From sequence record OQ031072: a stretch of DNA of 64,000 nucleotides; one strand, written 5' to 3'. Within the stretch, counting starts at the first letter, position 1, and each line of letters starts with the position of its first letter. Below the pieces are notes generated by a model. It searched no databases and was not told the DNA's origin. It worked only from the letters and a program-made list of their open reading frames with translations. This document shows, piece after piece, positions 18,766-57,726 of this stretch. The position numbers and the translations under genes are program-made. Source of the DNA: Shigella phage SFPB.

Positions 18766-18780
18766 ATTAGAAACGTCCTC

Positions 18781-20092: not shown

Positions 20093-20093
20093 G

Positions 20094-20597
20094 TTAAACC
20101 TCTACAAAAGTATCCTTGTCATTATCGTACTTGAAGAATTTTATACACTTTTGTGTATTCCAGTCAACCTTTTCATCATAAGCAAGACCTTTTGCTACAC
20201 GCTTTCCAATAGTCTGTATGATGATTTCACGGAGTTTCATATACTCCTTCCAAGCTCTGGAGCCAATAGTTATATTAAATTTATTATAGCTCTCAACAGC
20301 TTGCTCATTCCAACGAATCTCATTTGGTCTTACAGGTTTGTAAAGACGTGGAAGCATTTCATAGCCCATATGACCTTCTTCTTTGGCTAGTTCGAGTTGG
20401 TGAAGATACTCATTCAACCGTCCATCTTCCTCAAGCCACCTGTGAAGTGTCTGCAAGCCTAAGATGTTGTTGTTAAAGTGTGATGCACGTTTCACAGAAC
20501 CTAAATCACAACGATAATCTGACTTTGGTAGTGATAGTATGCTGCCTTGCAATACACTGTACCCAAAGTATAAATCGAGTTTTAAGGGAAGAGACAT
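20094..20597 (-). CDS. hypothetical protein
   Basis: 167-aa ORF. Confidence 0.45.
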   Translation of the reverse strand: MSLPLKLDLYFGYSVLQGSILSLPKSDYRCDLGSVKRASHFNNNILGLQTLHRWLEEDGRLNEYLHQLELAKEEGHMGYEMLPRLYKPVRPNEIRWNEQAVESYNKFNITIGSRAWKEYMKLREIIIQTIGKRVAKGLAYDEKVDWNTQKCIKFFKYDNDKDTFVEV

Positions 20598-20941
20598 TTG
20601 ATATCCTCATTTTTAAACACAAAAGTTGTGTAGTTGTGACCATCAACATCTAACCAGACAGCCTTAACATCAACACCATCTAGATTCTCTGACAACTCTT
20701 TGATGAAGTGGTCTCGTACCTTTTTGGCACTGGTGGTTTCAAGTTTGATGTTAGAGATTGCAGAGCCAATTGCCATATAACCTCTTACACGGTTTGCTTC
20801 AGTATGCTTCATACCACCAGTTGTGTAAACCTCTTTCAAGGTCTCCAGAATTGCATTACCATAAAGCTTCTCTGCTGGAGTTGGTTTACCATAGAAGCCA
20901 ATTGCAAAGTTATCGTTAAAGATTGCATTTTCACGTTTCAT
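20582..20941 (-). CDS. hypothetical protein
   Basis: 119-aa ORF. Confidence 0.45.
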   Translation of the reverse strand: MKRENAIFNDNFAIGFYGKPTPAEKLYGNAILETLKEVYTTGGMKHTEANRVRGYMAIGSAISNIKLETTSAKKVRDHFIKELSENLDGVDVKAVWLDVDGHNYTTFVFKNEDIKCLFP

Positions 20942-20942
20942 A

Positions 20943-21242
20943 TTAATCTGCCAGCCTTAAGTTAAAATTTACACCAAGTTTTGTACAAGCATTAAGCATG
21001 TACTCTAAAGAAATCTTTTGAGGGTCGTTAATGATATTTGATACACGACTCTGTGAGATTTCACAAACAGTTGCTACTTGAGCCTGAGAAAGTTTTAGCT
21101 TCTCAATCTCTTTAGAGAATCTGAAAGATACAAAGTCTTTCATCTCTTCTATATCCATTGGACAGACATAACTCTCCATTTCAGCCTCTCTATCAGCCTC
21201 CCAAGAATCTTGAGGTGCATATGGGTCAAAGACTTCATTCAT
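20943..21242 (-). CDS. XRE/Cro-type helix-turn-helix transcriptional regulator
   Basis: LSQAQVATVCEISQSRVSNIIN...LEYMLNACTKLGVNFNL is a classic Cro/CI HTH. Confidence 0.6.
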   Translation of the reverse strand: MNEVFDPYAPQDSWEADREAEMESYVCPMDIEEMKDFVSFRFSKEIEKLKLSQAQVATVCEISQSRVSNIINDPQKISLEYMLNACTKLGVNFNLRLAD

Positions 21243-21438
21243 CTTTTTTTCTCCGTTTTCGAGAAGTGTCTATTAACGAATCAAGATTAGTTGCTCTGAC
21301 GTTTTCACGAGTCCCATTAATGTAGTTATCTAAAGACTCTACAACGGTTGCAAAATCATTAGCCCAAACTCTGTAAATAACTACTCCGTCATCATCGACC
21401 ACTTCACCATAGTCTGTTCTACAGATGTTCTTCCTCAT
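21235..21438 (-). CDS. hypothetical small protein
   Basis: 67-aa ORF with basic C-terminus. Confidence 0.4.
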   Translation of the reverse strand: MRKNICRTDYGEVVDDDGVVIYRVWANDFATVVESLDNYINGTRENVRATNLDSLIDTSRKRRKKDE

Positions 21439-21440
21439 GA

Positions 21441-21821
21441 TTATAAACCCATGCAGTGACGATTTTCAATAAAGTATTGAACACCTTTGAAAGACTCACG
21501 CATAAAGTTGTCTTTCACATCTTCTACAGTCTCAATACCTTTGCTATCAAGAAGGTCAACGTTCTGAGTGACCATCTCATCTGCTAATCTGTCATAGTAA
21601 TCTCCCATAAAATGGTAGTTGTAGTCAACCATCTTATCAGTCATTTCTTGAACAGTCTGAGCAGACAACGGTTTAGTCAACTCTCCAGCATTTGAAGCGA
21701 TTTTCTGTACAATCTTACAAGATTCTAAAGCGACACCATTAAAGTTTGCTTCAGGCATCTTCATAGCTGCTGCACTAAAACTCATACCAATAGCAATGAC
21801 ACCAACAAGTAACTTTTTCAT
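21441..21821 (-). CDS. secreted/periplasmic protein with signal peptide; start trimmed to ATG after GGAGG
   Basis: MKKLLVGVIAIGMSFSAAAM signal peptide; SD GGAGG 7 nt upstream. Confidence 0.5.
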   Translation of the reverse strand: MKKLLVGVIAIGMSFSAAAMKMPEANFNGVALESCKIVQKIASNAGELTKPLSAQTVQEMTDKMVDYNYHFMGDYYDRLADEMVTQNVDLLDSKGIETVEDVKDNFMRESFKGVQYFIENRHCMGL

Positions 21822-21838
21822 AAACACCTCCGAGGTTT

Positions 21839-21899
21839 CTGACGGGTTCCTATATAATTTTCTATATAGGTAGTATACCCGTCAGGTTACTCATGTCAA
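21839..21899 (-). promoter_or_regulatory. sigma70-like promoter (TTGACA-16-TATACT, minus strand) overlapping a nested palindrome
   Basis: -35 rc at 21894-21899, -10 rc at 21872-21877; palindrome CTGACGGGT 21839-21847 / ACCCGTCAG 21877-21885 with inner CCTATATA/TATATAGG. Confidence 0.45.
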
Positions 21900-22062
21900 C
21901 AATTTTATACTAAATACATTCTAACTGCTGCATTTACTGCAAATGACAACAGAGTAAGGGCTAAGGCTGCTTTGTATGTTATACTTAAAAGTTTACTTAT
22001 GAAGTAAGATAATGATAAAACAACAAAAACAAACAGGATAATTGTGCTAAACATGCTAACCT

Positions 22063-23163
22063 CTATTCATAGTCTCGAATTACTATCCCAACAGGGAACT
22101 GTAAAGAACCCTTACGAGTCATCTTCTGGAACTGAACCGTTAAAGGCTTCCCGATAAACTCTTCAGGATGTTCAGCAAGATACTTTTTCTTCTCGTGTGT
22201 AGTTTTCCATGAAACATCTACAAAGACGTTAGGAAGAGTCTCTACAACGAACTTACCATGACCACGTTTATCAGTCTTTACACCAGTTACTTTAAATTCC
22301 TGTGTGTGCATCTTCTTGTGCTTAATCAGGAAGTAAGAGCGATGACCACACTCATAGAACGAATCTGGTGAGATTGACCGATACATTGCCCCTTCAAACT
22401 TGAGTTTAACCCAATTGTCATGAGCATTATCAAATTCTTCCCAAGAGTTAACACGGATTGTCTGAACAGGTACAACCCTGCAAGCATCACCGAGTTCAAC
22501 GATTGGTGAATTATCAATAACTTCACGACGCTCAGGCCAAGATTTAGTCTTGTCACAGATATCATACCAGTAGAATTTAAGAAGGTGACGGTCTGGATTG
22601 TCAGCATTCTTAATCATAGATACAATATCTTCCAAGTCCCAACCATGAGCATAAATCTCCCCGTCGAAATCCTCAACATCTTTGTGCAGTTTCAGCATAA
22701 GAAGAACATCAGGAATCAACTCTACAGGAATGTTGTATACCGTGTTCTCACGAGAATATGCCGTAAAACTTTCTGAGTCAGCATCTCTTGAAATCCTGCA
22801 ACGAACACCATCAAGTTTAGGTTGAGCATCGGCAGGGAATACCAGATACTTCTTGTGACTTATCTTGGAAGCATCCTGAGCAAGCTGTACACCAACCTTC
22901 TCAACATTCTCTGCTTCAGATTTTGTGTAAGCATATCCTTTACGGTCAACCTGCTTCTTGTACTTAGCAGCAACTTCAAAGAGAGCTTGCTGTTCAGCAT
23001 TACGCTCATTCTTTTTACCGATGTTCTTAGGTTCTGCTGTGTACTCTTCAAACATCATCTTGCCATTCTCTTTACCATAAGTTGTGACGACTTTATCACC
23101 TACAGCAACACATGACCAGACGTTGAAAGAACCATCTTTGTTTTGTTTGTACAGAATTGTCAT
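22063..23163 (-). CDS. ATP-dependent DNA ligase
   Basis: Adenylation motif PKLDGVRC (KxDG); ~366 aa as for T7-type ligases. Confidence 0.75.
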   Translation of the reverse strand: MTILYKQNKDGSFNVWSCVAVGDKVVTTYGKENGKMMFEEYTAEPKNIGKKNERNAEQQALFEVAAKYKKQVDRKGYAYTKSEAENVEKVGVQLAQDASKISHKKYLVFPADAQPKLDGVRCRISRDADSESFTAYSRENTVYNIPVELIPDVLLMLKLHKDVEDFDGEIYAHGWDLEDIVSMIKNADNPDRHLLKFYWYDICDKTKSWPERREVIDNSPIVELGDACRVVPVQTIRVNSWEEFDNAHDNWVKLKFEGAMYRSISPDSFYECGHRSYFLIKHKKMHTQEFKVTGVKTDKRGHGKFVVETLPNVFVDVSWKTTHEKKKYLAEHPEEFIGKPLTVQFQKMTRKGSLQFPVGIVIRDYE

Positions 23164-23699
23164 TTATTTTTCTTCTCCCACGTCTTTTTTAATTTTTCAA
23201 CAGAAACAATATTCCCAGAGTGCGTCATTGCATTGCTAGATAAGGAAAAGGAGCTATCTGGGTATGGTAGTCTCAATCTAGTATAAAAATCATAGTAGTT
23301 ATCACACAGGTCTTTGTATGCAATTTTTATGTTACCATTAGACATGTATGAGAGCAGAACAAGTGACCCATCTGGGTATTTTAAGCACTCCCCAAACTGT
23401 TTCTCGTATAAGTATCCAGCAAAATCTTTATACAAATCCTTCAAATGTTCAATGATATTATCAACTTGTCTTGCACCAAGACTTTTACAAATACGCGCAT
23501 ATTCCATGTTGTCAAATTGGTATGGCGTAGCTCCAGTTTCATGCCAAAACTCCAGTACAGAGAGTTTTACAGGTTGATATATAAAAGGGTTTGAATACTG
23601 TTTTTTCTTATCTTCATACCAAGGTATTGAGTAGCCTTGATAACCCATCTTCAGATTACTGTAGGACTCTTTGAATAACCTTTTTTCACTCATTGCCAC
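23160..23699 (-). CDS. hypothetical protein
   Basis: 179-aa ATGA-coupled ORF. Confidence 0.45.
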   Translation of the reverse strand: MAMSEKRLFKESYSNLKMGYQGYSIPWYEDKKKQYSNPFIYQPVKLSVLEFWHETGATPYQFDNMEYARICKSLGARQVDNIIEHLKDLYKDFAGYLYEKQFGECLKYPDGSLVLLSYMSNGNIKIAYKDLCDNYYDFYTRLRLPYPDSSFSLSSNAMTHSGNIVSVEKLKKTWEKKNK

Positions 23700-23947
23700 T
23701 TACCTTTTAAATACACATTTACAACTTGGTGGTCATAACCATCTTTAAGTTTATGCTTGACCTCTTCAACTCTGTAGTTCCAATCATTAATCTCAACAGT
23801 CTCCCCTTCTCGTGGAATAACTGGATTGCGTTGAGCTACAGTCATAGTGCTGAAGATGTTTTCATACTTATAGATAAAGTTTACCAGAACCTGCATATTA
23901 ATATCCCCCATCAAAAACTGTGGTGTGTGACTGACTATTCTTCCCAT
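23690..23947 (-). CDS. hypothetical protein
   Basis: 85-aa ORF. Confidence 0.4.
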   Translation of the reverse strand: MGRIVSHTPQFLMGDINMQVLVNFIYKYENIFSTMTVAQRNPVIPREGETVEINDWNYRVEEVKHKLKDGYDHQVVNVYLKGKWQ

Positions 23948-24143
23948 ACTTGTAAGAAGTTGTCGTCTGAGAATTTGGGCAGCGAACTACAATAACATCC
24001 CTGCTAATGGCATCACCATTAAGTTTATAAATCTTGCAGTCTTGCATTTCTGGAGGAAGTCTGTAAGAAGCATCCTTATTCTCATAAGAAGGGTTACATC
24101 CAACCAGTAGGACTACTAAAGCTGGTATCAATAATTTTAACAT
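23898..24143 (-). CDS. small lipoprotein
   Basis: Signal peptide with lipobox LLVGC. Confidence 0.45.
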   Translation of the reverse strand: MLKLLIPALVVLLVGCNPSYENKDASYRLPPEMQDCKIYKLNGDAISRDVIVVRCPNSQTTTSYKYGKNSQSHTTVFDGGY

Positions 24144-24153
24144 TTCAAACCTC

Positions 24154-24405
24154 TCAATAAAATAAATCTGAAGCTTTTGAATTTACAGGATTCAAAGAAC
24201 CTTCGTAATGTTCTTCATAACCCTCTTGGCAGATATTATACAGTTCTTTGAATCGGGTTTCATCAACTGGTTTAACATCTTTCTTAGCGCATAAGAAGAG
24301 ATACCAATCATACCCCAAATCCCTGCACCAAGCCTCTGAGACAAAAGCTATTGATTTGTCTTCGCTCTTGAAGATTGCTAAAGCTTCTTGCTCTTTATTG
24401 CTCAC
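24154..24405 (-). CDS. hypothetical protein
   Basis: 83-aa ORF. Confidence 0.4.
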   Translation of the reverse strand: MSNKEQEALAIFKSEDKSIAFVSEAWCRDLGYDWYLFLCAKKDVKPVDETRFKELYNICQEGYEEHYEGSLNPVNSKASDLFY

Positions 24406-24616
24406 GATACTCTACCTCTCTAAAAGTTTTATGGTAATAGATTTTGTAGTAAGCTATCTCGTTACTTTTAACATTTGTTTTAAGAAGAGTCCAGTCATAA
24501 CCTTCACCAACTCTTCCCCAAATGCTATAAAGTTTCATTAAAGATACTCCATCCAGTTTTCTGCCAAGGTTCCCCCTTGTACCATGCAGCCATTGGGTAA
24601 CCCATTTCACATACAA
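24395..24616 (-). CDS. hypothetical small protein (start uncertain, overlaps upstream ORF)
   Basis: ORF track only. Confidence 0.25.
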   Translation of the reverse strand: MYVKWVTQWLHGTRGNLGRKLDGVSLMKLYSIWGRVGEGYDWTLLKTNVKSNEIAYYKIYYHKTFREVEYREQ

Positions 24617-24731
24617 CCTTTCCGTCTTTTATTTCAAAGAACTCATCAGATGTGAAATTTTCATTTCGAACTTTCTTGCCCTGTTTCATAGCTTCGAGAG
24701 CTTCTTCGTATGTCATTTTTGGTGTCTCCAA
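24525..24731 (-). CDS. hypothetical protein
   Basis: 68-aa ORF. Confidence 0.4.
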   Translation of the reverse strand: METPKMTYEEALEAMKQGKKVRNENFTSDEFFEIKDGKVVCEMGYPMAAWYKGEPWQKTGWSIFNETL

Positions 24732-24922
24732 AATTCAATGTCAATAAGTTCCTGTGCAATACTCTTCAGATTCCCTTTCAAGAAAACCTTTTCAGAGTTA
24801 GGTAGGCTTGCATTATCGATGAGTCTATTCATTCTGTCAAAAAGAGTTTTCTTCCGATTCTTGATAGTCTCTTTTGAAGCACCTTGCATCATGGCGAGAT
24901 GAGTTCTTCCACGATGGCTCAT
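24713..24922 (-). CDS. hypothetical small basic protein
   Basis: 69-aa ORF; ATGA-coupled. Confidence 0.4.
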   Translation of the reverse strand: MSHRGRTHLAMMQGASKETIKNRKKTLFDRMNRLIDNASLPNSEKVFLKGNLKSIAQELIDIEFWRHQK

Positions 24923-25119
24923 AGACGTTCACCTTTAAGGTAGCCTGTCTTATCCTTGATAATCTTACCTCCAGCAATAAAAATATCAACCTTGCGAAGA
25001 TTTTCATTAGAAAGCTTGAGGTGCTTATGGCTACTGCAAATGATGATGCACATAGCCTCAATCTCACTTTGAGAATATCCAGCACATTGCAGTTGAACTT
25101 CAATTTCTGAAATAGTCAT
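24919..25119 (-). CDS. hypothetical small protein
   Basis: 66-aa ORF. Confidence 0.4.
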   Translation of the reverse strand: MTISEIEVQLQCAGYSQSEIEAMCIIICSSHKHLKLSNENLRKVDIFIAGGKIIKDKTGYLKGERL

Positions 25120-25180
25120 ACAAGTCTCCTATACAATATATAGTATAAGGTACTCTTCCATGAGCACCTTGTCAACACTA

Positions 25181-27880
25181 TTAGTGGACTTCAAGCCACG
25201 ATTTACCAACTTTCCCTGCACCTGTGACCAATGTCTCTTTTCTTAGCCCAAGGTTCTTAGATGCTTGACCATAATACCAGTCAGTTACTGCTTTCACATC
25301 TGCTGTCATGCTCTCTGGACATTCCCAGCTTGTTTCATCGTGGTAAGCACAGAGTAAGCGAGCACCAATAGCTGGTTTACGACCATTCAACTTCATCAAA
25401 CCCTCATCAATCATACGACGACATGCAAGGTTGATTGCTTCATTCTGAACTTGTGCTTCTGAACCCATCAGCAAATAGTTCAAGAGTTTGTGTGGAGACT
25501 TACACCACAGCCAAGCCCCAGCAACCTTCACAAAACCACCTTTAGCTATTGCAGCAGTTTTACCAAACACCTCTTCAAGTGCTTTCTTAGTTGCTTTGAA
25601 ATCAGCTTCCAAGTTGTCTAACAGTTTCTTAATCTTCGGTAAACGCACAAAGTAAGTCTGCTTAGTCAATGCACCTTCCTGAGTAGTTGCTGCTTTAATT
25701 GTTTTAGCAAACTTCTCATCACCTGCACCGAACAACAGGGCATAGATACCATTCTTAGCTTTCTTACGCCCCTTGCTAATCTCATGAAGAAGATTCTCAT
25801 CCTGAGTAGCACGACAAGTCAAGATATCTTGCTCATCATTAAGGCTGAAGTAGATACTGTTCAGAGTGTGAGCATCAGTCCCTGAGTAAACTACGTACAA
25901 ATCGTTTTCAGAGTCGTAACGCAGATACTTGTCAATCTCTGGATTCAGATACTGGTCAAAGTGTTTACAGTAGTATCTTCCATCCTCTTGACGGACAAAC
26001 TCAATCTCTTCTTTACCCTCTGTTACCGCTTTGGTGAAGTCTTTATCACCCATGAAGTTACAGAGTAGTACAAGCTGTGCAGAGTTCATATCAACAGATA
26101 CTACGTTGGTTCCCTCTTCACAAATCCACACTGCCCTCATTGGCTCACCGTACACGGCAGCACCAGAAGGTACGTTTACAATACCATACTGAGTCATACG
26201 TCCAGTAGAAGTACCAAACACCATTGCACCTGCACTCAAACGACCATCTGGACGAATCTGGTTCAGCCAACCTTTCTCATCATCCTTTGAGTTCTCAATA
26301 GTCCTGCGTCGGTGCATCAAAGTATAGTACTTCGCAATCTTCTGTCCAAGCTCACCTTCGATTGTATCATAAGAAGACTCTGTAAGCTTTGGTGAAGTCC
26401 TAATCAAGCAAGGCTCAAGCACATCTGTGTACTTCTTAACAGACCAGTTATGCTCAATGTAATAGACACCTTCATGCTCAATGTAATTCAATCCACAACG
26501 TTCAACCATCTCATCCCACTTAGGATGTTTGCGAATCATCTTTTTGTTGTCTTTGAATCTGCAAACCTTGATAGGACGACCATCAGAATCTTTTTTATAG
26601 TTCCAATCATCAGGAATCCAACCAACGGATTTTAAGTAATCCTTCACCACAGCTACCTGAGTCATTCGTGAAACTTCAAACTCAATTGGTGTAAATGGTG
26701 CATCAATCAAACCAGTGTAGCGACTAGACTCTAATTCAAAGTGATTAACAACGTGAACGTTGTAGTACTTCACAGTTTTCACAGTCTTAACTGGCTTCCA
26801 ATCTTTACACTTCTTGCCAATCTTCTCATTCAGTTCATTACAAACTGCACGAGCATCTTTCATTGCTACAAAACCTTCAGGGTACTCTTCTTTTGTGACC
26901 GTGTTAGTTGGAGTGTAGCAGTTGCGCTTCTCAACATTAAAAATCTTTGTAGTTGGCTTACCATACGGCTTGATAGGGTACTGCTTCAACTCACCTTCAC
27001 GCATCTGTTCACGATACTTTGTCTTAGGGTACTTGGTAATCCTTTTCAAACCATCAACGTGACCAAATGTATCTACATACTCGTTCCAAGACTTGGCAAA
27101 TTCTTCACCTGTGACTTTACCTTTTGTCTTAATAGTTGGTGGAAGGTGTGGTTCAACCTCAGCAGCCAACTCGTTAGTTAACTTGTCAAGTTCTTTAACG
27201 TGGAACTGCATAAGTTCTACATCAGCTTTCCAACCGTTGATAGCTTGCTGACTCATCCAGAAGGATGTTTCTTTAGCTCGCATGTAGGTTTCATAAGTGT
27301 CAACACCACACTTCTTAAGTTTGAGGTACTCATTATCAAGAGCACGTTTAGTTTTGGCGTTAATCTTAATATCTTCTACAACACGAGTAAGAATCTCTGC
27401 ATTCCAGACACCCCACTCTTCAATCTCTGGTTTACGGACACCTACACGAGCACCCCATGCAGCTAAACCATGAGCACCTTTGTAACCTTTTGGCGTAGGT
27501 CTATCCATCCACTGTACGCGAGATTGGATAAGTGAATCCTGAAAGAAGTCACCCCAAGGCTTACACTTAGTATTCTCAAAGTTCCACAGGTCAGGTGCAA
27601 TGTGATTAAACACCCACCAGTCATAACCAAGACCATTGTGGATACAAAGACGTTTAGCTTTCAGTGCAAACTCAACACCTTCACGCAGACCACCTTTGAT
27701 GTATTTTGTATACTTGTGACCAAGAATAGGCTCATCAGTGAAAACCCACACAGCAGGTTCATCACTGTCATCTTTATAGTCTGCGAAAGCCATTACGTGT
27801 GCTTTTGTAAACTCAAGGAGCAACCCATCAGTTTCTGTATCACCAACCAAATGTAATTTTTCGAAATCTACATTGTCCAT
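25181..27880 (-). CDS. DNA polymerase, family A, with 3'-5' exonuclease domain; start trimmed to ATG after GAGGAG
   Basis: Exo I motif VGDTETDGL; family-A motifs DMNSAQL (A), KNGIYALLFGAG (B), YHDE (C). Confidence 0.85.
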   Translation of the reverse strand: MDNVDFEKLHLVGDTETDGLLLEFTKAHVMAFADYKDDSDEPAVWVFTDEPILGHKYTKYIKGGLREGVEFALKAKRLCIHNGLGYDWWVFNHIAPDLWNFENTKCKPWGDFFQDSLIQSRVQWMDRPTPKGYKGAHGLAAWGARVGVRKPEIEEWGVWNAEILTRVVEDIKINAKTKRALDNEYLKLKKCGVDTYETYMRAKETSFWMSQQAINGWKADVELMQFHVKELDKLTNELAAEVEPHLPPTIKTKGKVTGEEFAKSWNEYVDTFGHVDGLKRITKYPKTKYREQMREGELKQYPIKPYGKPTTKIFNVEKRNCYTPTNTVTKEEYPEGFVAMKDARAVCNELNEKIGKKCKDWKPVKTVKTVKYYNVHVVNHFELESSRYTGLIDAPFTPIEFEVSRMTQVAVVKDYLKSVGWIPDDWNYKKDSDGRPIKVCRFKDNKKMIRKHPKWDEMVERCGLNYIEHEGVYYIEHNWSVKKYTDVLEPCLIRTSPKLTESSYDTIEGELGQKIAKYYTLMHRRRTIENSKDDEKGWLNQIRPDGRLSAGAMVFGTSTGRMTQYGIVNVPSGAAVYGEPMRAVWICEEGTNVVSVDMNSAQLVLLCNFMGDKDFTKAVTEGKEEIEFVRQEDGRYYCKHFDQYLNPEIDKYLRYDSENDLYVVYSGTDAHTLNSIYFSLNDEQDILTCRATQDENLLHEISKGRKKAKNGIYALLFGAGDEKFAKTIKAATTQEGALTKQTYFVRLPKIKKLLDNLEADFKATKKALEEVFGKTAAIAKGGFVKVAGAWLWCKSPHKLLNYLLMGSEAQVQNEAINLACRRMIDEGLMKLNGRKPAIGARLLCAYHDETSWECPESMTADVKAVTDWYYGQASKNLGLRKETLVTGAGKVGKSWLEVH

Positions 27881-28138
27881 TTTTACTCCTCTCAAATCAT
27901 TCTGGATAATACCCTACAGCAATTTTCTTCAAAAAGCAAGTTGACAAACTACTTGACAAGGTGTTAGTCTTTTCGAAGTGGGTTTTATCTTAATAGACTC
28001 CCTTTATAGATTAACTATACAGTTTCTTTAAAAGTCTTAAAAGATTTTTAATAGCTTTTAAAAAGCTTTAAAGTTATATGTATAACATACATAAAGATAA
28101 GAGATTAAAATCTTTATAGATACTTAACAGAGGCAATC

Positions 28139-46115: not shown

Positions 46116-46386
46116 AGAACAATGGGATATCAAAGAGCTAATTAGCGAAGCTGGAAATGGTAGTGAGATGTATATGATACGTGGTCACGTCCCAGATGCA
46201 CTTGCTATTGAGATGATAGACCACTACTCCAACGGATTCTATAAAGAGTTTGGAGAGCCAAATATTGAACGTACTTGGACAAAACCAGTACCAGACGGAA
46301 CAGGAAACTGTTCAGTTATCTACCATATTGTAGACCCAAAGAAATGTAAATCAGCTATGGCTGTAACATTTGTAACTTTTGATTGA
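46108..46386 (+). CDS. hypothetical protein; start trimmed
   Basis: SD GAGG; 92 aa. Confidence 0.4.
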   Translation: MAREQWDIKELISEAGNGSEMYMIRGHVPDALAIEMIDHYSNGFYKEFGEPNIERTWTKPVPDGTGNCSVIYHIVDPKKCKSAMAVTFVTFD

Positions 46387-46396
46387 GAGAAATATT

Positions 46397-47278
46397 ATGA
46401 AAACTACTATTCGAGTTCTACTTAATTCAAATTCCAAAGGTTCTCATCAAGAGACCTTCAACATTATCCAGTTCCCTTCTGGGGAGATTGGTGGTAACTT
46501 CTCAGAAGACTTAGTAGACTTTGCTGAACATGCTGCTGGTAAGATTGAAAACGTAATATTCACTGTACAAGGTTATGACAAAGACACACTCTTTGCATTG
46601 GCTATGGCTAAAGAAGCAATTGACCGTTTGATTCCTCAGAAAGCAACCCTGAAAACTGTTGTCTTTGGATTCTTACCAAATGCTCGCTATGACCGTCACA
46701 TGTTTAAAGGTGATGCAGCAGCACTTAAAGTCTTTGCAAATCTTGTAAATGCTATGGAGTTCGATGCAGTATGTGCTCTGGATACTCACAGTAATGTTGC
46801 AGAGAATTTGTTTAAGAGCTTCTACAACCTCCCTCAAAAAGAGGCAGCAGTCCACTTTGCAAGTGACCCACGCATTGATTACTTAGTGGCTCCAGATGCA
46901 GGTGCAGCTAAGAAGACTGAAGAGGCTGCTAAAGAGGTTGAGAAACCTTACATTACAATGGCTAAGGTACGAAACCTGAAAACTGGTGAAATCACTGGTA
47001 TGCGAATCCTTGATGATGTAGACTTGACAGGTAAGACCGTCATGATTCTGGATGATATCTGTGACGGTGGTCGAACATTTATCGAGGCTGCAAAGTATCT
47101 TCGTGAAGCTGGAGCAGAACGTGTAGAACTGTATGTCACTCATGGGATTTTCTCTAAAGGTGTTGAAAATCTCCTTGACAATGGTATCGACCATATCTAC
47201 ACTACAAACTCACTAGGGGATGAAAAAGACCGTGGTCTTTCCCACTTCTCACAAGTGACCGTAGCAAATATTGAATAA
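46397..47278 (+). CDS. ribose-phosphate pyrophosphokinase (Prs)-family enzyme; candidate ADP-ribose pyrophosphokinase (Adps-like); start trimmed
   Basis: Prs architecture: N-domain FPSGEI, DTHS segment, phosphoribosyltransferase loop GKTVMILDDICDGGRTF. Confidence 0.7.
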   Translation: MKTTIRVLLNSNSKGSHQETFNIIQFPSGEIGGNFSEDLVDFAEHAAGKIENVIFTVQGYDKDTLFALAMAKEAIDRLIPQKATLKTVVFGFLPNARYDRHMFKGDAAALKVFANLVNAMEFDAVCALDTHSNVAENLFKSFYNLPQKEAAVHFASDPRIDYLVAPDAGAAKKTEEAAKEVEKPYITMAKVRNLKTGEITGMRILDDVDLTGKTVMILDDICDGGRTFIEAAKYLREAGAERVELYVTHGIFSKGVENLLDNGIDHIYTTNSLGDEKDRGLSHFSQVTVANIE

Positions 47279-47322: not shown

Positions 47323-49149
47323 ATGACTAAATCAATCTATGCAGTACCAGCAGGTCTTAATGCAGATGCTTATAAAGCGGGTCATATCTATCAGTATCCA
47401 GATGCTACACAGTATCTTATGTTGAACTTAACACCTCGTGGAGATAAATGGTTTAACTCTCCGTTAGAGATTGATGGTGTTGTAGCTTTTGGTATTCAGC
47501 GTTTTGTAAAAGACTATCTGGTAGACCACTGGAATGCAACGTTCTTTGAACGTGATAAGAAAGAAGCCATTGACGAAATCTTGGAAATCATGAATGGTGT
47601 CCTTGGTGCAGATACTATTGGTCGTCAACATTGGGAAGAACTTCATGACTTGGGTTACCTACCTGTTGAAGTCTACTCTGTAGAGGAAGGTACAATTGTC
47701 CCTATGCGTGTCCCGATGATTGTCTTCAAAAATACTGTAGAGGGATTCCATTGGGTAGCTGGTTACCTTGAAGATGCTTTCTCTGCTGAAATCTGGAAAG
47801 CTTGTACGATTGCAACTATTGCACTGCATTACAAACGTATTTGTAAGCAATGGGCTGATTTAACCTGTGACAACGACTCCCATTTACCTTGGCAGTGTCA
47901 TGACTTTGCAATGCGTGGCATGTCTGGCTTCACAGATGATGCGTTTAACGCAGTAGGACACCTGACAAGCTTTAAAGGCACTGACAGCTTCCCTGCTGTC
48001 TACACTGCTAAACGTTCTTATGGTCAGTTTATGGAAGTAAGTGATATCGGCAACTCTGTACCAGCTACTGAACACTCTGTGATGTGCGCAAACATTTCAT
48101 GGAATATGAAAGACTTGTCAGAGGAAGATATTCATTCACAGTACATCATGCGGTCTGATAGCTTGCTGGATGCAAAACGTTGGCGTGGTGAGGTTAAAAC
48201 CTTTGAGCATTTACTGGTAGACGTATATCCAACTGGTATTGCAAGTGTTGTTTCAGATACTTACAACTTCTGGCGTACTGTTACAGAGATTCTGCCAGAG
48301 CTACGTAATGTAATTCTGAATCGTGATGGTAAGTTGGTAATTCGTCCAGACTCTGGAGACCCTGTTCACATTGTTACAGGTTACAAAGCCGTTGAATGGG
48401 AAACTGCTAAGTCAATGTTCTACAAGCACATGAAAGGTCTTGCACCAGATAATACCCATCTGCATGACACAATCTTGAATTGTGAAATGTCTGATATTGG
48501 TTTTGGGTTCTCTGCTTGGTTAATCTCTGAAGGTTATGAGATGGTTGTTGAAAATGAAGATTTTGATTATATTGATACAATCAACCTGATTACCGCTCAG
48601 AAAACTGGACAGTTTACTGTGAAGCGTATGTTAACAGCAGAAATTGATGGAGCTATCCACACGCTGTATAACATATTTGGTGGCACTGTTAACTCCAAAG
48701 GGTACAAAGTACTGGATGAGCACATTGGGCTAATCTACGGTGATTCTATCACTCTGGAAAGGGCTAATGAGATTCTGTCACGTCTTGCTGATAAAGGTTT
48801 TGCAAGTTCTAACGTGGTGTTTGGTGTAGGCTCATATACCTATCAGTACCTGACCCGTGACACCTTTGCATTTGCTGTTAAAGCAACTCTTGCACAGATG
48901 GATGGTCAAGAAATTATGCTGGCTAAAGACCCTAAAACTGACAGTGGTCTTAAGAAGTCTGCTTTTGGTGGGGTTGTCCCTATGTGGGATGGTGACAAGC
49001 TGGTAGCTGTAGATGGTTTTGGATTTGCAGAGTTTGAAGGTGCAATTGACAATTGCCATAGTGCTTTGAAACTGGTATTTAGCAATTCACAGGCTTGTAA
49101 CCGTGTTAACCTGCGTGATGTTCGAAATACTATTGACAAGCAACTTTAA
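47323..49149 (+). CDS. nicotinamide phosphoribosyltransferase (Nampt/NadV)-family enzyme; candidate Namat-like
   Basis: LNADAYKAGHIYQYP, HDFAMRGMSGF...FKGTDSF and IRPDSGDP segments align with Nampt. Confidence 0.8.
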   Translation: MTKSIYAVPAGLNADAYKAGHIYQYPDATQYLMLNLTPRGDKWFNSPLEIDGVVAFGIQRFVKDYLVDHWNATFFERDKKEAIDEILEIMNGVLGADTIGRQHWEELHDLGYLPVEVYSVEEGTIVPMRVPMIVFKNTVEGFHWVAGYLEDAFSAEIWKACTIATIALHYKRICKQWADLTCDNDSHLPWQCHDFAMRGMSGFTDDAFNAVGHLTSFKGTDSFPAVYTAKRSYGQFMEVSDIGNSVPATEHSVMCANISWNMKDLSEEDIHSQYIMRSDSLLDAKRWRGEVKTFEHLLVDVYPTGIASVVSDTYNFWRTVTEILPELRNVILNRDGKLVIRPDSGDPVHIVTGYKAVEWETAKSMFYKHMKGLAPDNTHLHDTILNCEMSDIGFGFSAWLISEGYEMVVENEDFDYIDTINLITAQKTGQFTVKRMLTAEIDGAIHTLYNIFGGTVNSKGYKVLDEHIGLIYGDSITLERANEILSRLADKGFASSNVVFGVGSYTYQYLTRDTFAFAVKATLAQMDGQEIMLAKDPKTDSGLKKSAFGGVVPMWDGDKLVAVDGFGFAEFEGAIDNCHSALKLVFSNSQACNRVNLRDVRNTIDKQL

Positions 49150-49163
49150 AACAGTATGATAAG

Positions 49164-49187
49164 AGGCTCCTACGGGAGCCTTTTTAA
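49164..49187 (+). terminator. rho-independent terminator
   Basis: AGGCTCC tacg GGAGCCT then TTTTT. Confidence 0.6.
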
Positions 49188-49418: not shown

Positions 49419-49750
49419 AAATTAAACAGATGAATGTTAATTTAATCATTGAAGAACGTTGGGAAAACATCAAGCGCCATGAAGATGGTCATAAGTTTAT
49501 CAATGAACTGTTTCAAGCAGCACAATCAGAGTTAGCTTCTGAGATTTATACAACGGTTACTTTGAAGGTTTATATCAAAGGTCTTCCACAGAACCATCAA
49601 GAAGCTCTTGATTTGTTTCAAGAAGAATTTTACAATCCAAACAAAAAGATACTTGAGAATAGTTTTGCAGTATCTTCGAGTATTGTCCATGACAGGAGTT
49701 TTGTCCTATTCAGAACTATAGGAGACAAGGTATGCAAGGTTATTGGTTAG
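49415..49750 (+). CDS. hypothetical protein
   Basis: 111-aa ATGA-coupled ORF. Confidence 0.45.
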   Translation: MKIKQMNVNLIIEERWENIKRHEDGHKFINELFQAAQSELASEIYTTVTLKVYIKGLPQNHQEALDLFQEEFYNPNKKILENSFAVSSSIVHDRSFVLFRTIGDKVCKVIG

Positions 49751-49911
49751 AAATTGTTCTTTCACTCGGTTGTATAGTTGCTATTGCAGTATTACTATGC
49801 AAGTACTTCTCAGAGACTGAACCTTGTGATGAATGTGAAGGTTCTGGGGTAGTTGGTATAGGGCATTGTTGCCCTTACTGTAATGGAACTGGAAAGAAAT
49901 TTAAAAAGTAA
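49732..49911 (+). CDS. small membrane-anchored zinc-ribbon protein (59 aa), not in ORF track
   Basis: SD GGAGACAAGG; N-terminal hydrophobic helix; CDECEGSG...CCPYCNGTG. Confidence 0.35.
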   Translation: MQGYWLEIVLSLGCIVAIAVLLCKYFSETEPCDECEGSGVVGIGHCCPYCNGTGKKFKK

Positions 49912-49973
49912 CTTGACAGTGGCATCTATAAAATTATATAGTTTGCCACATCGACAACTAAGGAGATACTCTT

Positions 49974-52346
49974 ATGCGCATGGTAAATGACCACGCAACG
50001 GTAATTAAAAGCTCAAGTACACTGGAAACCTCTCAGGCTCAGATTAAGATGACACCTGAAATGTTCAGTCTTCTAAGCTCAGGTGTTTACACATATAAAG
50101 AACGTGCTGTAATTCGTGAATTGTCATGTAACGCAGTAGATGCTCACATTGATTCTGGTAACGTTGATAAACCTTTCTTGGTTCACTTACCAACTCGTTT
50201 CGAGCCATTCTTTGAAGTTCGTGACTTTGGTACTGGATTGACTCATGATAAAGTAATGGACCTCTACATGAACTACGGAGAGTCAACAAAGAATGATTCA
50301 AATGACTACATCGGAGCTATGGGTATCGGTTCAAAGTCACCGTTTGCGATTGCTCAATCATTTACTGTATCAAGCTACGTTGATGGTGTTGTTAACAAGT
50401 ACTCTGTATATCTTGAGAATGGTATCCCTCAAGTTACTAAGTTGACTACTAACCCAACTACAGAGCCAAATGGTTTAGCTGTTCGAGTAGCGGTATCTGA
50501 TAACCGTATTAACAAGTTTCATGAAGAAGCGAGCAATGTATACTCGTACTTTAAAGTTAAGCCAGAGTGTAATGTTGAGTACTATGACATTCTTGAAGCA
50601 ATGACTTCCATTTCTCGTGAAGATGGTGTCTATGATGCAATGAAGTACAAAGAGAACTGGCGCTCAAATAGTAACAGTGTCCATTTCAACGTAATCATGG
50701 GAGATATTGCTTATCCTGTTGAAATGGGCGAGTTGCTTGGTTCAGAGTTTACAAGTATTCTGCCTCAGTTCTTCCGTAGTGCTGTAGACCTTGTTAATAT
50801 CTACATGCCAATTGGTTCAGTGGCTATTGCTGCATCTCGTGAAGCATTACAGATGAATGAGACCACTAAGACAAAGATTGTTGAAGCCGTGAAGAAAATC
50901 ACTAAGACAATCGTTGAAGATGTGGTTAAAGAGATTGCTAATAAGCCAACGCTGATTGATGCTGCTCAGGCTTATGATACCATGAGGAAAGAGGCTCGTG
51001 AAATCTTTAATCACGTCCAAGATTCTCTGGAGTGGCAAGGTCAGAACTTGAAAAAGCTTGAACAAAAGCTATTGGGTATTCGTCGTGGTCAGTTAACTGA
51101 AGCAGATGGTTCTCCATCATTCTTGAAAGATGATGCAGGTAACTTAAGGCTTGACAAAGACGGTAATCCAGTCCCTAATATTGGTAATCTGTATGAGCCT
51201 GTAGCATATTACAAGTACAGCAGTCTGGAGAATCGTATTCGAGCAACTTCAGCAACATATTCACAAGATGCTGCCATGTTTAGTATCTTTGGTGCAATGA
51301 GTAAAGATAAGTTGAGCAACTATTTGTTCCTTATCAATGACCGTCGAAACAAGAACGGGTCTGAAAAGACGACTGGTAAAAATCAGATTATCCGTGGAGC
51401 TTGCCGTGACCGTGAACAGGAAGATTCTAACTTCCGTCGCTACAATGGTATTGCTTTCTTGTTCAGCAGTCAGCAGCAATTTGATGAATTTGTAGCTCTG
51501 CATATGCTTGACAAGACTCTGTTAAGTGTGCATACAATGTCATCTAAAGAGCACCACTATGAGAAACGTACCATTGTACGTGGAGTGGTGAAGCTGTACA
51601 AAGCATTTATATGTCCAAATACTTACATGATTCGTTATACAGAGGTTAAAGAGAACTTTGATGAGATTGAAGAACCACAACTGTATATCAAAGCACAGAG
51701 TGATGAAGTGATTGGTGGAATCTTCTCATGTTCACCAGAACGTGCTGCAACGTTGATGACAGAGTTAACTGGACAGTCTGTTTATGTCTTCCGTAAAGCC
51801 AACTGGAAAAAGATTCCTGAAGACTGGACAGAAGTCAATGAACAAGTAATGAAAGATTTTATTGATAACACTCATTGGATTGAGTATCACCGTTACTTGA
51901 CTCACCAATATATGACTAATAATCATGATATCACTGATTGTAATGTGATTTCTCGAAACTTTATGTTTGCTGATAAGCGTAAGTCCAGAGGCCACATTTA
52001 CAGTAAAGACTTTAAGAAGACTATTTTCTTAGAGGGGAATGAAGAGGCTATAGAAGCAATGTTTGGACGCTTGGCATATACTGCTGCACCAGTTGCTTAC
52101 AAAGATATTACCAGCACTCTTGATACCATTCGCAGGAATATGAGAGGCTCTTGTAAGCCAAGAAAGGTTCTGGATAACGCTAAGAAGCGTCTTGAAAGTA
52201 AGTTCAAAGATTACTTTGAGAAACGCCGTAAAGAAAACTTCTTGCTTTCTAATCTGGATTGGAATAAAGTATCACCAGTCGAAGTTGGTAAGTTTTTAGG
52301 TTTTGACACTAAGAGCATTCCAGAAGATACTGTATGCTGGGATTAA
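49974..52346 (+). CDS. rIIA: rIIA-like protein with GHKL-type ATPase domain
   Basis: N-terminal ELSCNAVDA, RDFGTGL and GAMGIGSKS motifs; ~790 aa; followed by rIIB-sized gene. Confidence 0.55.
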   Translation: MRMVNDHATVIKSSSTLETSQAQIKMTPEMFSLLSSGVYTYKERAVIRELSCNAVDAHIDSGNVDKPFLVHLPTRFEPFFEVRDFGTGLTHDKVMDLYMNYGESTKNDSNDYIGAMGIGSKSPFAIAQSFTVSSYVDGVVNKYSVYLENGIPQVTKLTTNPTTEPNGLAVRVAVSDNRINKFHEEASNVYSYFKVKPECNVEYYDILEAMTSISREDGVYDAMKYKENWRSNSNSVHFNVIMGDIAYPVEMGELLGSEFTSILPQFFRSAVDLVNIYMPIGSVAIAASREALQMNETTKTKIVEAVKKITKTIVEDVVKEIANKPTLIDAAQAYDTMRKEAREIFNHVQDSLEWQGQNLKKLEQKLLGIRRGQLTEADGSPSFLKDDAGNLRLDKDGNPVPNIGNLYEPVAYYKYSSLENRIRATSATYSQDAAMFSIFGAMSKDKLSNYLFLINDRRNKNGSEKTTGKNQIIRGACRDREQEDSNFRRYNGIAFLFSSQQQFDEFVALHMLDKTLLSVHTMSSKEHHYEKRTIVRGVVKLYKAFICPNTYMIRYTEVKENFDEIEEPQLYIKAQSDEVIGGIFSCSPERAATLMTELTGQSVYVFRKANWKKIPEDWTEVNEQVMKDFIDNTHWIEYHRYLTHQYMTNNHDITDCNVISRNFMFADKRKSRGHIYSKDFKKTIFLEGNEEAIEAMFGRLAYTAAPVAYKDITSTLDTIRRNMRGSCKPRKVLDNAKKRLESKFKDYFEKRRKENFLLSNLDWNKVSPVEVGKFLGFDTKSIPEDTVCWD

Positions 52347-52353
52347 AAATAGT

Positions 52354-52382
52354 TTGACAGGGGCTGAAAAGCCCCTTAGAAT
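52354..52382 (+). promoter_or_regulatory. sigma70-like promoter TTGACA-17-TAGAAT whose spacer is the GGGGCTGAAAAGCCCC hairpin
   Basis: -35 52354-52359, hairpin 52360-52375, -10 52377-52382. Confidence 0.45.
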
Positions 52383-52425
52383 ACGAACCACTAAGTAATT
52401 TTAAACAACAAAGAGAGATATTGAA

Positions 52426-53538
52426 ATGACTACTAAGACTAAAGCACAAATCGACGCAGAAATCTATGCACTGGTTAAAGAAGGTAAACTGACCAAAACT
52501 GCAATCGCTCTGAAGTATAACACTTCAACCCGTTCGGTAGGTCGTGCTGTAGAGCGTCATGAAGCAACGCTGCTGTCAGGGAAAACCAAAGCAAAACCTG
52601 CAAAGACTCTGAAAGATATTGCTAAGAAAGCTAAAGCAACCAAGAAAGTATCTAAGCAGAAAACTGTTGCAAAAGCTGTTAAAGAAGCAGTCAAAACAGA
52701 ACCTGTGAATGCTCTGCATGAAGCAATGCAGAATAACAGCCAGATTGAATACATGATTACTGGTGATTCTGTTATCATGACTTTCGGTGCAGAGTCTGAG
52801 ATTGTTGAGTCAACTCATCCTAACTACACTGATATTGTAATGGCTGTTGTTTCAGGTGAGTACAAGAAAGCTTTTGAACTGATGAACATTCACAAGTCTA
52901 TTGAGAACTTCACTCAAGGTGCTGTAACCATCAAAGGTGACAACCTGTATTACGGTGCTGTTCAGATGCGCTCAACTCTGGTAGACCGTATTCTGGATAT
53001 GATGAAGAAAGGTGATAATGGTTTTGTTCGACTGATTGCATTCTTCGAAAAACTTATGGAAAACCCATCAAAAGATTCTGTAGAACAACTTTGGGGCTTC
53101 GTATCACACCTTGATGTTGAAATTGATGAAGAAGGTTATATCATCGGCTGGAAGAAAGTCACAACCCGTGGTGGTAAACTGTTTGACTCTCGTACCTGCA
53201 AAGTTCCAAATGATTTGGGTAACATTGTAGAGATGCCACGTTGGATGGTTGATAATAACCGTCATGTAACCTGCTCTCAGGGTCTGCACGTTGGTGCTTG
53301 GGATTATGTAACTAGCTTCTCTGGTGACACTATCCTGAAAGTTCGTGTTCATCCTCGTGATGTTGTTTCAGTACCAACTGACTACAACGACATGAAAATG
53401 CGAGCTTCCCGTTATGAAGTTGCAGCGATTGTAAATAGTCGCCGTGAAGTCATCAAAGAGTGGGATGGTTCAGAAGCACTCCACGTAGTTGTAGGTACTG
53501 CTGGTGAACTGATTTCTCAGCGTAAACGTGAAGTCTAA
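52426..53538 (+). CDS. rIIB: rIIB-like protein (by position and size)
   Basis: 370-aa ORF directly downstream of rIIA-like gene; no motif recognised. Confidence 0.4.
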   Translation: MTTKTKAQIDAEIYALVKEGKLTKTAIALKYNTSTRSVGRAVERHEATLLSGKTKAKPAKTLKDIAKKAKATKKVSKQKTVAKAVKEAVKTEPVNALHEAMQNNSQIEYMITGDSVIMTFGAESEIVESTHPNYTDIVMAVVSGEYKKAFELMNIHKSIENFTQGAVTIKGDNLYYGAVQMRSTLVDRILDMMKKGDNGFVRLIAFFEKLMENPSKDSVEQLWGFVSHLDVEIDEEGYIIGWKKVTTRGGKLFDSRTCKVPNDLGNIVEMPRWMVDNNRHVTCSQGLHVGAWDYVTSFSGDTILKVRVHPRDVVSVPTDYNDMKMRASRYEVAAIVNSRREVIKEWDGSEALHVVVGTAGELISQRKREV

Positions 53539-53554
53539 TAAGTAAATTCCTAAA

Positions 53555-53580
53555 GGGGCTGCTTCGGCAGCCTTTTTTAT
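53555..53580 (+). terminator. rho-independent terminator
   Basis: GGCTGC ttcg GCAGCC then TTTTTT. Confidence 0.6.
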
Positions 53581-53608
53581 TTGAAAAATGTGCAGGTTAG
53601 TGTATAAT
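53581..53608 (+). promoter_or_regulatory. sigma70-like promoter TTGAAA-16-TATAAT
   Basis: -35 53581-53586, -10 53603-53608; spacer contains TGTGCAGGT, the iteron core. Confidence 0.5.
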
Positions 53609-53639
53609 TGTCTGCATGTTTAACAAAATAGGAGTGCAA

Positions 53640-54188
53640 ATGAAGAAATTTGTTTTAGGTTTGTGCTTATTCTTTACAGCACATTTAGCTACAGCGTCTG
53701 ACTGTCCAGAGCTTACAATCAGTCAGAAAGTTAATATGTTAAAAGCATATAACTATGGCGAAGGACAGATGGGAAAAGGTTGGGGAATCCCTTTAGCAGC
53801 TATAGCCTTACAAGAGTCACAATTAGGTGTCATGTTAGAAAATAAAAAGACTCATGATTATGGTGTTTTCCAAAATCACTTGAAGACTGTTGTAAAGCGT
53901 AACAAGGTATCTCCAAAGGTTGCTAAGAAGAAGCTAGTAAGTGACTTCCATTACTCAGCGAAAGAGGCTCATAAGGAGCTATTATTCTGGACTAAGGTTC
54001 ATGGTAACCCAGATGGAAAGTACTCTATGAAGCGTGTCCTAGCTTCTTATAATGCTGGTTACAAATACAAGATTCCAAAGGCTAGACAATACTCTCAAGA
54101 TGTGTACAATAACATGAAACTGCTGGCTCAATGTGAGTTTGCAACAAACATTAAAAAGGTAAAATATGAGCGAATCAAAACAATTTGA
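53640..54188 (+). CDS. secreted lytic transglycosylase-like (SLT domain) protein; candidate endolysin; start trimmed
   Basis: Signal peptide MKKFVLGLCLFFTAHLATA; SLT-like core AIALQESQLG...DYGVFQN. Confidence 0.55.
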   Translation: MKKFVLGLCLFFTAHLATASDCPELTISQKVNMLKAYNYGEGQMGKGWGIPLAAIALQESQLGVMLENKKTHDYGVFQNHLKTVVKRNKVSPKVAKKKLVSDFHYSAKEAHKELLFWTKVHGNPDGKYSMKRVLASYNAGYKYKIPKARQYSQDVYNNMKLLAQCEFATNIKKVKYERIKTI

Positions 54189-56931: not shown

Positions 56932-57726
56932 ATGGGTATCGTAAAAATTATTAAAGGTGATATCTTTAAAGACTTTGATGGTAAGAAATTTGATATCATT
57001 GGTCACGGTTGCAACTGCATGAACTTGATGGGTGCAGGTATCGCAGCAACAATTGCCAAACGTTACCCAAAAGCTTATGAAACTGATGCTGAAGTTTATG
57101 CTACAGTAGGTGGTGAAAATCATAACCCTAAGCATCTAATGCTTGGTAACATCTCTGTAGCACGTTTTAAGCAGGGTCGAATTGCTAACCTTTACACTCA
57201 GGTTATCACTGGCAAAGATGCACGATACAACGCCTTAGAAGCAGCTTTACAGCGTCTTAACAACTACTGTAAAGTTAATCAACTTAAGAAAGTTGGACTT
57301 CCTATGATTGGTGCAGGGATTGGTGGTCTTGACAGCATGGCTGTGCTGTCTATCATCAATCAGACCATGAAAGATGTTGACGTTTATATGTATGTCTATG
57401 AAGATAAGATGTACAGTCAGTTGACTAGTCCGGTTACTGGTTGGGAAAACTTTAGTGAACCTCAATACTTTGATGGTGTTGCCGTGGTAGGCAAGGATAA
57501 AGTTACTCTCAAGGTGAAGCGTAATGGTAAGGTACACACCAGTTACCCTCCGGTTGATAAGTACAATCGAAGTAACGCTCAAGTTACCCACCCGTTACAA
57601 GGCCATTGTCACAGAGCCGTAACATTTGGTGATGATGCAAGTGTGTATATCGGTGCTGCTACAGAAGAGTTTGCAGAGGATTATATCACACATGAGAATG
57701 TTAACTATGTTGAAGCACGTAACTAA
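56932..57726 (+). CDS. macro-domain (ADP-ribose binding/processing) protein with C-terminal extension; start trimmed
   Basis: GDIF...FDIIGHGCNCMNLMGAGIAATIAK resembles the macro NAAN...GGGVAGAI signature; second Gly-rich loop LPMIGAGIGGLD. Confidence 0.5.
   Translation: MGIVKIIKGDIFKDFDGKKFDIIGHGCNCMNLMGAGIAATIAKRYPKAYETDAEVYATVGGENHNPKHLMLGNISVARFKQGRIANLYTQVITGKDARYNALEAALQRLNNYCKVNQLKKVGLPMIGAGIGGLDSMAVLSIINQTMKDVDVYMYVYEDKMYSQLTSPVTGWENFSEPQYFDGVAVVGKDKVTLKVKRNGKVHTSYPPVDKYNRSNAQVTHPLQGHCHRAVTFGDDASVYIGAATEEFAEDYITHENVNYVEARN

Follow-up and report, generated by a model that had tools for sequence, protein, structure and literature searches.

Shigella phage SFPB carries, on the + strand of its sequence record OQ031072, two adjacent genes resembling the rII pair of phage T4, which is conditionally required against the RexAB exclusion system. 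The question that this locus raises is whether the two genes are indeed rIIA and rIIB and, if so, what they do for the phage. We analysed a stretch of 64,000 nucleotides from that record (the window; all positions refer to it) and conclude, with a probability of roughly 0.9, that the locus is the rIIA-rIIB module, with both genes intact, of a Felix-O1-type virulent phage of the Ounavirinae (Mooglevirus-like), and that its role is one of counter-defence.

Identity of the Two Genes

Two open reading frames (ORFs), both opening with ATG, occupy positions 49974-52346 (790 amino acids, preceded by AAGGAG) and 52426-53538 (370 amino acids) of the + strand, separated by a gap of 79 nt, and all other ORFs across the region, antisense or overlapping, are of at most 82 amino acids. 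These positions and sizes coincide exactly with those of a first-pass annotation made from the letters alone, which had called the upstream gene rIIA-like from its ATPase motifs and the downstream gene rIIB by its position only. It had proposed a profile search with both families as a check, and had named a lack of homology to rIIB as the outcome that would undo the call; in that search both proteins found their families. For the 790-aa protein, the match to the PHROG 'RIIA' profile phrog_612 has E = 6e-184, with residues 1-770 on positions 1-713 of 725; for the 370-aa protein, that to the 'RIIB' profile phrog_609 has E = 9.5e-85. Moreover, BLASTP against the T4 prototypes (rIIA NP_049616 and rIIB NP_049889, taken from NC_000866) aligned the upstream product over 331 amino acids at 31% identity (E = 1e-39), in its N-terminal part only, and the downstream product over 276 amino acids at 38% identity (E = 6e-58), so that homology now confirms what position had suggested for rIIB. 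A tblastn search with rIIB matched 2906 phage records, many of them with rIIB annotation, and the Pfam family PF26926 is precomputed on every listed rIIB database homologue. For rIIA, NCBIfam and PADLOC scans returned only weak, generic GHKL matches (HSP90-family, sacsin, TmtA), and rIIB matched nothing in either. As a sequence search of the PDB returned no meaningful match for either protein, structures were taken from prediction. As far as sequence can tell, every defining feature of rIIA and of rIIB is present in the SFPB pair.

The closest relatives point in the same direction. The locus is 97% identical at the DNA level to that of the Mooglevirus phages Shigella Sf13, Sf14, Sf15 and Sf17 and Citrobacter BSwM KMM2, and 92% identical to that of Escherichia phage SUSP1 (NC_028808, Suspvirus). 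The same Mooglevirus/SUSP1 affiliation is seen over the window's first 25 kb. In most of these matching records, including those of Sf13, Sf14, Sf17 and SUSP1, rIIA and rIIB are annotated. Identity to the SUSP1 proteins reaches 94% for rIIA (743/790) and 96% for rIIB (358/373). Gene order, lengths (790 amino acids for rIIA; 370 versus 373 for rIIB), promoters, hairpin and neighbours are shared with SUSP1, Sf13, Sf14, Sf15 and Sf17, the only differences being point substitutions and, in the rIIB linker rich in lysine, an indel of 3 aa. The arrangement of rIIA beside rIIB on one strand also recurs in Sf13, SUSP1, wV8, FG1m and Wc4-1.

With T4, the SFPB locus shares a homologous N-terminal ATPase module in rIIA, a homologous body and N-terminal helix-turn-helix (HTH) in rIIB, and the adjacency of the two genes on one strand. 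It differs from T4 in that about 460 amino acids of the rIIA C-terminal part cannot be aligned by BLASTP, in the longer linker and the C-terminal extension of about 38 residues in rIIB, and in that each of the SFPB genes has a promoter-hairpin cassette.

The pair is already known, dozens of near-identical genomes carrying the annotation, and for SFPB itself little is at stake, as its genes are correctly called and have been functionally probed in relatives with 94-96% identity. What we regard as mildly new lies at the level of the family, namely the assignment of rIIA to a two-domain MORC/Hsp90 type, a sigma-region-4-like HTH joined to an orphan fold in rIIB, and a PeSL-like cassette in an Ounavirinae genome.

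Domain Organization of rIIA

The N-terminal part of rIIA (aa ~28-330; 50055..50963, + strand) is predicted to be a GHL/MORC-type ATPase module, in which a Bergerat ATP-binding domain is followed by a second, transducer-like domain. The motifs recognized in the first-pass annotation are all in place: the N-box ELSCNAVDA (aa 49-57; nt 50118-50144), the G1 motif RDFGTGL (aa 83-89; nt 50220-50240) and the G2 motif GAMGIGSKS (aa 114-122; nt 50313-50339), their T4 counterparts being ELITNMIDA, RDFGPGM and GGFGLGSKS. The Pfam domain HATPase_c_3 is found on aa 45-163 with 26.4 bits, above its gathering cut-off of 25. In an alignment of 70 diverse homologues, with identities down to ~22%, no variation is seen at E49, N53 and D56 of the N-box, at D84 and G86 of G1, or at G114, G117, G119, K121 and S122 of G2, nor further downstream at R289 and E290; the latter two belong to the invariant motif S288-R289-E290 (50832-50849), a candidate sensor motif. 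The module appears complete, with every ATP-binding residue kept, and these conserved residues predict that rIIA binds and hydrolyses ATP and that ATP drives its dimerisation.

The predicted model of rIIA (predicted local distance difference test score, pLDDT, of ~87) aligns over 250-340 residues with the two-domain modules of TRAP1, MORC2/3, SMCHD1, ParE and MutL. Among the GHL/MORC ATPases (Hsp90/TRAP1, MORC2/3, SMCHD1, Topo II/VI-B and MutL), identity to rIIA is just 11-13%, and no domain of the kinds that follow the module in those proteins (Toprim, CW zinc finger, MutL endonuclease, Hsp90 middle or C-terminal) was found in rIIA. Searches of rIIA by Pfam, NCBIfam and structural comparison revealed no Toprim, Hsp90 middle or C-terminal, or histidine-kinase dimerisation domain, and we place rIIA among the GHL/MORC-type ATPases and not among GHKL proteins of the kinase type. 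Conservation collapses past about aa 330; the remaining, lineage-variable C-terminal region (aa 331-790; 50964..52343, + strand) is modelled as a confident fold, for which no separate structural match was obtained.

Domain Organization of rIIB

The AlphaFold2 model of rIIB (pLDDT 86.7) contains three parts, all encoded on the + strand. A three-helix HTH of the sigma-region-4 / LuxR / DeoR-like kind (aa 6-51; 52441..52578) is followed by a disordered, lysine-rich linker (aa 54-93; 52585..52704) with pLDDT below 50 and a net charge of +11 over aa 51-100, and then by a conserved alpha/beta body (aa 96-370; 52711..53535), which is the defining core of rIIB. All 15 invariant residues, from F206 to R326, lie within the body, which, judging from the model, appears to be a fold without a solved structural relative. 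Linker length varies, with indels in SUSP1, wV8, Wc4-1 and T4, and the C-terminal extension missing in T4 rIIB comprises the last ~38 amino acids. A Pfam scan of SFPB rIIB, with a set of models lacking PF26926, gave HTH matches only, all of them below threshold. This HTH recurs in T4 rIIB, where HTH_7 scores 23.6 bits (E = 5.6e-5; cut-off 23.8) and Sigma70_r4 has E = 0.0027, and the T4 and SFPB proteins align from residue 1. Neither in rIIA nor in rIIB was a transmembrane helix or a strongly hydrophobic segment predicted.

Phenotypes of rII Genes in Related Phages

A role in counter-defence is best supported by experiments on relatives of SFPB, which in effect amount to the plating test on exclusion systems that the first-pass annotation had proposed. 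In the CRISPRi-ART study (PMC11879866), knockdown of rIIA or rIIB was harmless without Rex in phages T4, MM02, EdH4, SUSP1 and N4, and the efficiency of plating (EOP) was lower with lambda RexAB. For SUSP1, guide rIIB_4 reduced the titre from ~1e10 to 5e6 (~1000-fold), only when lambda rexAB was expressed (PMC11879866, SuppFig20 source data). The text of that study claims a Rex-dependent loss of EOP for both genes in all five phages, and among the raw SUSP1 titres the effect is strong for rIIB_4 only. By PhageMaP (bioRxiv 10.1101/2024.10.10.617714), deletion of g85 or g84 of phage Bas63 lowered EOP by 1e4-1e5 on QatABCD, and the defect was complemented. Bas63 (Felixounavirus JohannRWettstein) belongs to the same subfamily as SFPB, and its g85 and g84 are rIIA and rIIB; we infer their likeness to the SFPB pair through other Felixounavirus genomes, as the rIIB proteins of wV8, FG1m and JH2 are 78-80% identical to that of SFPB. 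These QatABCD data thus pertain to a Felixounavirus and not to the Mooglevirus/Suspvirus clade. In addition, HIDEN-SEQ found transposon insertions in T4 rIIA and rIIB to be depleted only in the presence of RexAB, and flagged the rII orthologues of Bas37 on clinical isolates. Finally, rIIB of phage T6 is on its own toxic to E. coli and triggers a Lysobacter gasdermin/CARD system, and T6 rIIB escape mutants are Rex-sensitive. By analogy with these phages, the rII module of SFPB would let the phage complete infection despite RexAB-type abortive infection and, within the subfamily, QatABCD, and would be dispensable where such systems are absent.

How the rII Module May Act

The mechanism of rII is still unsettled ~70 years after Benzer, for the whole family, and our confidence in any particular mechanism is low for that reason. 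We weakly favour a mechanism in which rIIA and rIIB would jointly form an ATP-driven complex that acts on a client or a nucleoprotein and keeps the infection signal from reaching the defence sensor, rather than plugging a membrane effector directly. Such action upstream of the sensor is suggested by the domain set, of a kind usual in machines directed at DNA or clients, by the lack of a membrane-spanning segment, by the defeat of two unrelated defence systems, and by the fact that RexA is a DNA-binding protein. The 'RIIB' profile phrog_609 spans 1055 positions, and is matched by the N-terminus of rIIA at 30-313 (E = 1.1e-49) and by rIIB at 755-1047, which suggests that fused rIIA-rIIB proteins exist and are built into this profile; such fused forms would support joint action, as a Rosetta-stone hint. 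A more specific version, in which a MORC/Hsp90-like dimerising ATPase and its HTH-bearing partner hide or remodel a signal that RexA-type DNA-binding sensors perceive, making the module a nucleoprotein- or client-directed machine and not a protector of the membrane, is a tentative proposal that we hold to be rather doubtful. If true, it would apply to the whole rII family and not to SFPB in particular.

Several observations weigh against our interpretation, be it in its functional or in its mechanistic part. All phenotype evidence comes from relatives of SFPB. Both SUSP1 guides against rIIA changed the titre at most ~6-fold, in a manner not clearly Rex-specific, and of the two SUSP1 guides against rIIB just one was effective, rIIB_1 also remaining within ~6-fold (PMC11879866); this figure is our own arithmetic on the raw titres of that study, in which similarly small changes are seen without rexAB. 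Because SUSP1 guides give weak EOP effects in general (PMC11879866), incomplete knockdown is a plausible cause. Given the outcome with the rIIA guides, a requirement for rIIA against Rex is not demonstrated in the SUSP1/SFPB clade, and the direct Rex evidence is stronger for rIIB. As to mechanism, which we infer from domain content, conservation within the rIIB family is lowest in the HTH, which for that reason cannot form the core of the mechanism: HTH and linker have an occupancy of ~0.45 in the homologue alignment, compared to 1.0 for the body. In the older T4 literature, both rII proteins are recovered with the inner-membrane fraction, which favours action at the level of the membrane. Moreover, exclusion is lost in RexA mutants whether their DNA binding is enhanced, impaired or abolished, so that there is no simple correspondence between RexA binding to DNA and triggering.

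The classical alternative places rIIA and rIIB peripherally on the inner membrane, downstream of the sensor, where they would preserve energisation or block a RexB-type channel effector. Rex acts via depolarisation by RexB, rII has been described as an inhibitor of RexAB-mediated membrane depolarisation, and T4 records label both genes 'membrane integrity protector'; the strongly basic linker of rIIB could bind anionic lipid, and the toxicity of T6 rIIB alone can be counted on the same side. This model does not sit easily with two proteins devoid of transmembrane helices and strongly hydrophobic segments, nor with the pairing of a GHL/MORC-type ATPase and an HTH protein, which is not typical of membrane proteins. 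Furthermore, that one module counters both RexAB and QatABCD, whose components are unrelated, is easier to understand through a shared upstream signal, yet membrane effectors have been suggested for both systems. We regard action at the membrane as a rival to be taken seriously, though on the unlikely side.

It is improbable that rIIB is chiefly a sequence-specific transcription factor, with exclusion phenotypes arising indirectly from altered phage or host gene expression. The HTH at its N-terminus is assigned with confidence, HTH Pfam families are present in several rIIB homologues as well as in T4 rIIB, and Iyer et al. 2021 (PMC7824862) include rIIB among specific transcription factors; however, HTH and linker are the least universal part of the protein, whereas the invariant residues all belong to the C-terminal body, and rIIB triggers the Lysobacter gasdermin system without a phage genome, which points to an effect at the level of the protein or of cell physiology. 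A literal lysis inhibitor, working in the lysis-timing machinery alongside the lysozyme-like and spanin genes close by, is more improbable by far. The PHROG and RefSeq product names ('RIIA/RIIB lysis inhibitor') and the location of the lysozyme-like gene and spanins 0.1-2.4 kb 3' of the pair speak for it. The name rII is historical, the r standing for rapid lysis, and against this reading a terminator and a new promoter set rIIB apart from the lysozyme-like gene, and knockdown of, or insertion into, rII leaves plating unharmed in the five phages named above when the defence system is missing. Lastly, that the locus is not rII at all, but a generic GHKL protein (a topoisomerase subunit, Hsp90-like chaperone or kinase) beside an unrelated ORF, is scarcely credible: we rejected this reading on the match of rIIA to its profile over nearly the full length and on the direct T4 homology of both genes, and the Toprim, Hsp90 and kinase-dimerisation domains that it would call for were not found.

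As to the choice between a membrane and a nucleoprotein-signal mechanism, the rII proteins of Felix-O1-type phages could serve beside those of T4 as a second system. They are tractable, with tools for knockdown in SUSP1 and for deletion in Bas63, and are compact and confidently modelled, both at a pLDDT of ~87.

Putative Promoters, Hairpins and Terminator of the Module

The first-pass annotation had placed a hairpin-bearing promoter between the two genes, and this element can now be described as a putative composite of promoter and stem-loop at 52354..52382 (+ strand). The hexamers TTGACA (52354-52359) and TAGAAT (52377-52382), 17 nt apart, agree with the consensus at 11 of 12 positions, and their spacer holds the hairpin AGGGGCT-GAAA-AGCCCCT (52359-52376), with a 7-bp stem and a GAAA loop. 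The fold has a free energy of -13.5 kcal/mol (z = -4.2), and none of 200 shuffled sequences was as stable. The cassette is identical in Sf13 and SUSP1, and wV8 and FG1m keep the stem and both hexamers with a changed loop, the variants being GAAA, TTGA and TCAA. Across the three genera the stem at 52359-52376 is invariant, that is, conserved with no covariation when compensatory changes were looked for; in the more distantly related Pectobacterium phage Wc4-1, the hairpin of the rIIA-rIIB gap is a different one.

In T4-type phages, PeSLs (promoter-early stem-loops) consist of a sigma-70-like promoter with a G/C-tract stem-loop between or overlapping the hexamers, and act as promoter plus attenuator (PMC2839356, PMC4122927). 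As a repeated family, PeSLs also mediate recombination. The SFPB element resembles the PeSLs (Arbiol 2010, Comeau 2014) in combining a strong sigma-70-like promoter with a G-run/C-run stem-loop between a stop codon and the following Shine-Dalgarno sequence; it differs in that PeSLs were described in Straboviridae-type phages, while the cassette here lies in an Ounavirinae genome. Neither PMC2839356 nor PMC4122927 describes such cassettes for Felix-O1-type phages. A sigma-70-like promoter with a stable stem-loop in an intergenic gap is present at 52354-82, with similar elements at 49913, 53581 and 57329.

A promoter-like site also precedes rIIA (49913..49942, + strand), being of the sigma-70 type TTGACA-18-TATAGT with a score of 11/12 in the promoter scan. 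Its -10 hexamer is flanked by the inverted repeat GTGGCA (49919-49924) / TGCCAC (49944-49949), which folds at -15.3 kcal/mol (z -3.7). Downstream of rIIB, a terminator-like hairpin (53552..53578, + strand) has the form GGCTGC-TTCG-GCAGCC followed by TTTTTT (-15.6 kcal/mol, z -3.2), and the wV8 record has a Rho-independent terminator at the corresponding position. A simple terminator scan missed this hairpin, probably because the T-run pairs into an extended stem. The terminator is followed by the lysozyme-like gene's own promoter (53581-53608). Thus, rIIA and rIIB each appear to have their own predicted sigma-70-type promoter, presumably early, since this type is read by the host RNA polymerase, and the terminator would close the module.

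Several intergenic sigma-70-like promoter sites with a stem-loop in the spacer, round the -10 hexamer or just downstream, all resembling PeSL cassettes, were noted across the window, at 49133-49184, 49913-49949, 52354-52382, 53552-53608 and 57329-57356, and also 32735, 40272 and 63175; at 49133, for example, TTGACA-16-TATGAT is followed by a hairpin at 49161-49184. Hairpin sequences differ between these sites. A window-wide scan of promoter-like sites gave many stems of at least 6 bp, at about the rate expected by chance (~0.2 expected per site with loops of at most 22 nt, as a rough estimate). Only short-loop, GC-rich hairpins are for that reason individually convincing, and we do not claim a genome-wide excess of hairpins.

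Genomic Neighbourhood

The neighbours follow the same order as in Sf13 and SUSP1, namely a PRPP-synthetase-like gene, a nicotinamide phosphoribosyltransferase gene, three small ORFs, rIIA, rIIB, a lysozyme-like gene, a polynucleotide kinase gene and the spanins. The first two (46379-47278 and 47323-49149, with names taken from Sf13/SUSP1) lie just 5' of the rII pair. In Bas63, genes g79 and g80 counter Sir2-HerA, and rIIB and rIIA are g84 and g85; if the Bas63 gene order is conserved, this part of the SFPB genome would be a counter-defence cluster in which NAD+ salvage sits beside rII.

Directly 5' of the rIIA promoter, a 59-aa ORF (49732-49911) encodes a product with a hydrophobic helix at the N-terminus and two copies of the motif CxxCxGxG (CDECEGSG and CPYCNGTG), resembling a DnaJ-type zinc finger; the Sf13 annotation describes it only as a predicted membrane protein. 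No tRNA genes were detected in the window. On the 3' side of rIIB, the lysozyme-like ORF (53616-54188) starts with a hydrophobic N-terminal segment, MKKFVLGLCLFFTAHLATA, which suggests a signal peptide or an endolysin of the signal-anchor-release type. On a larger scale, GC skew is negative only at ~18-28 kb (18000-28000 of the window) and positive elsewhere, which indicates a block of opposite-strand genes within an otherwise + strand segment.

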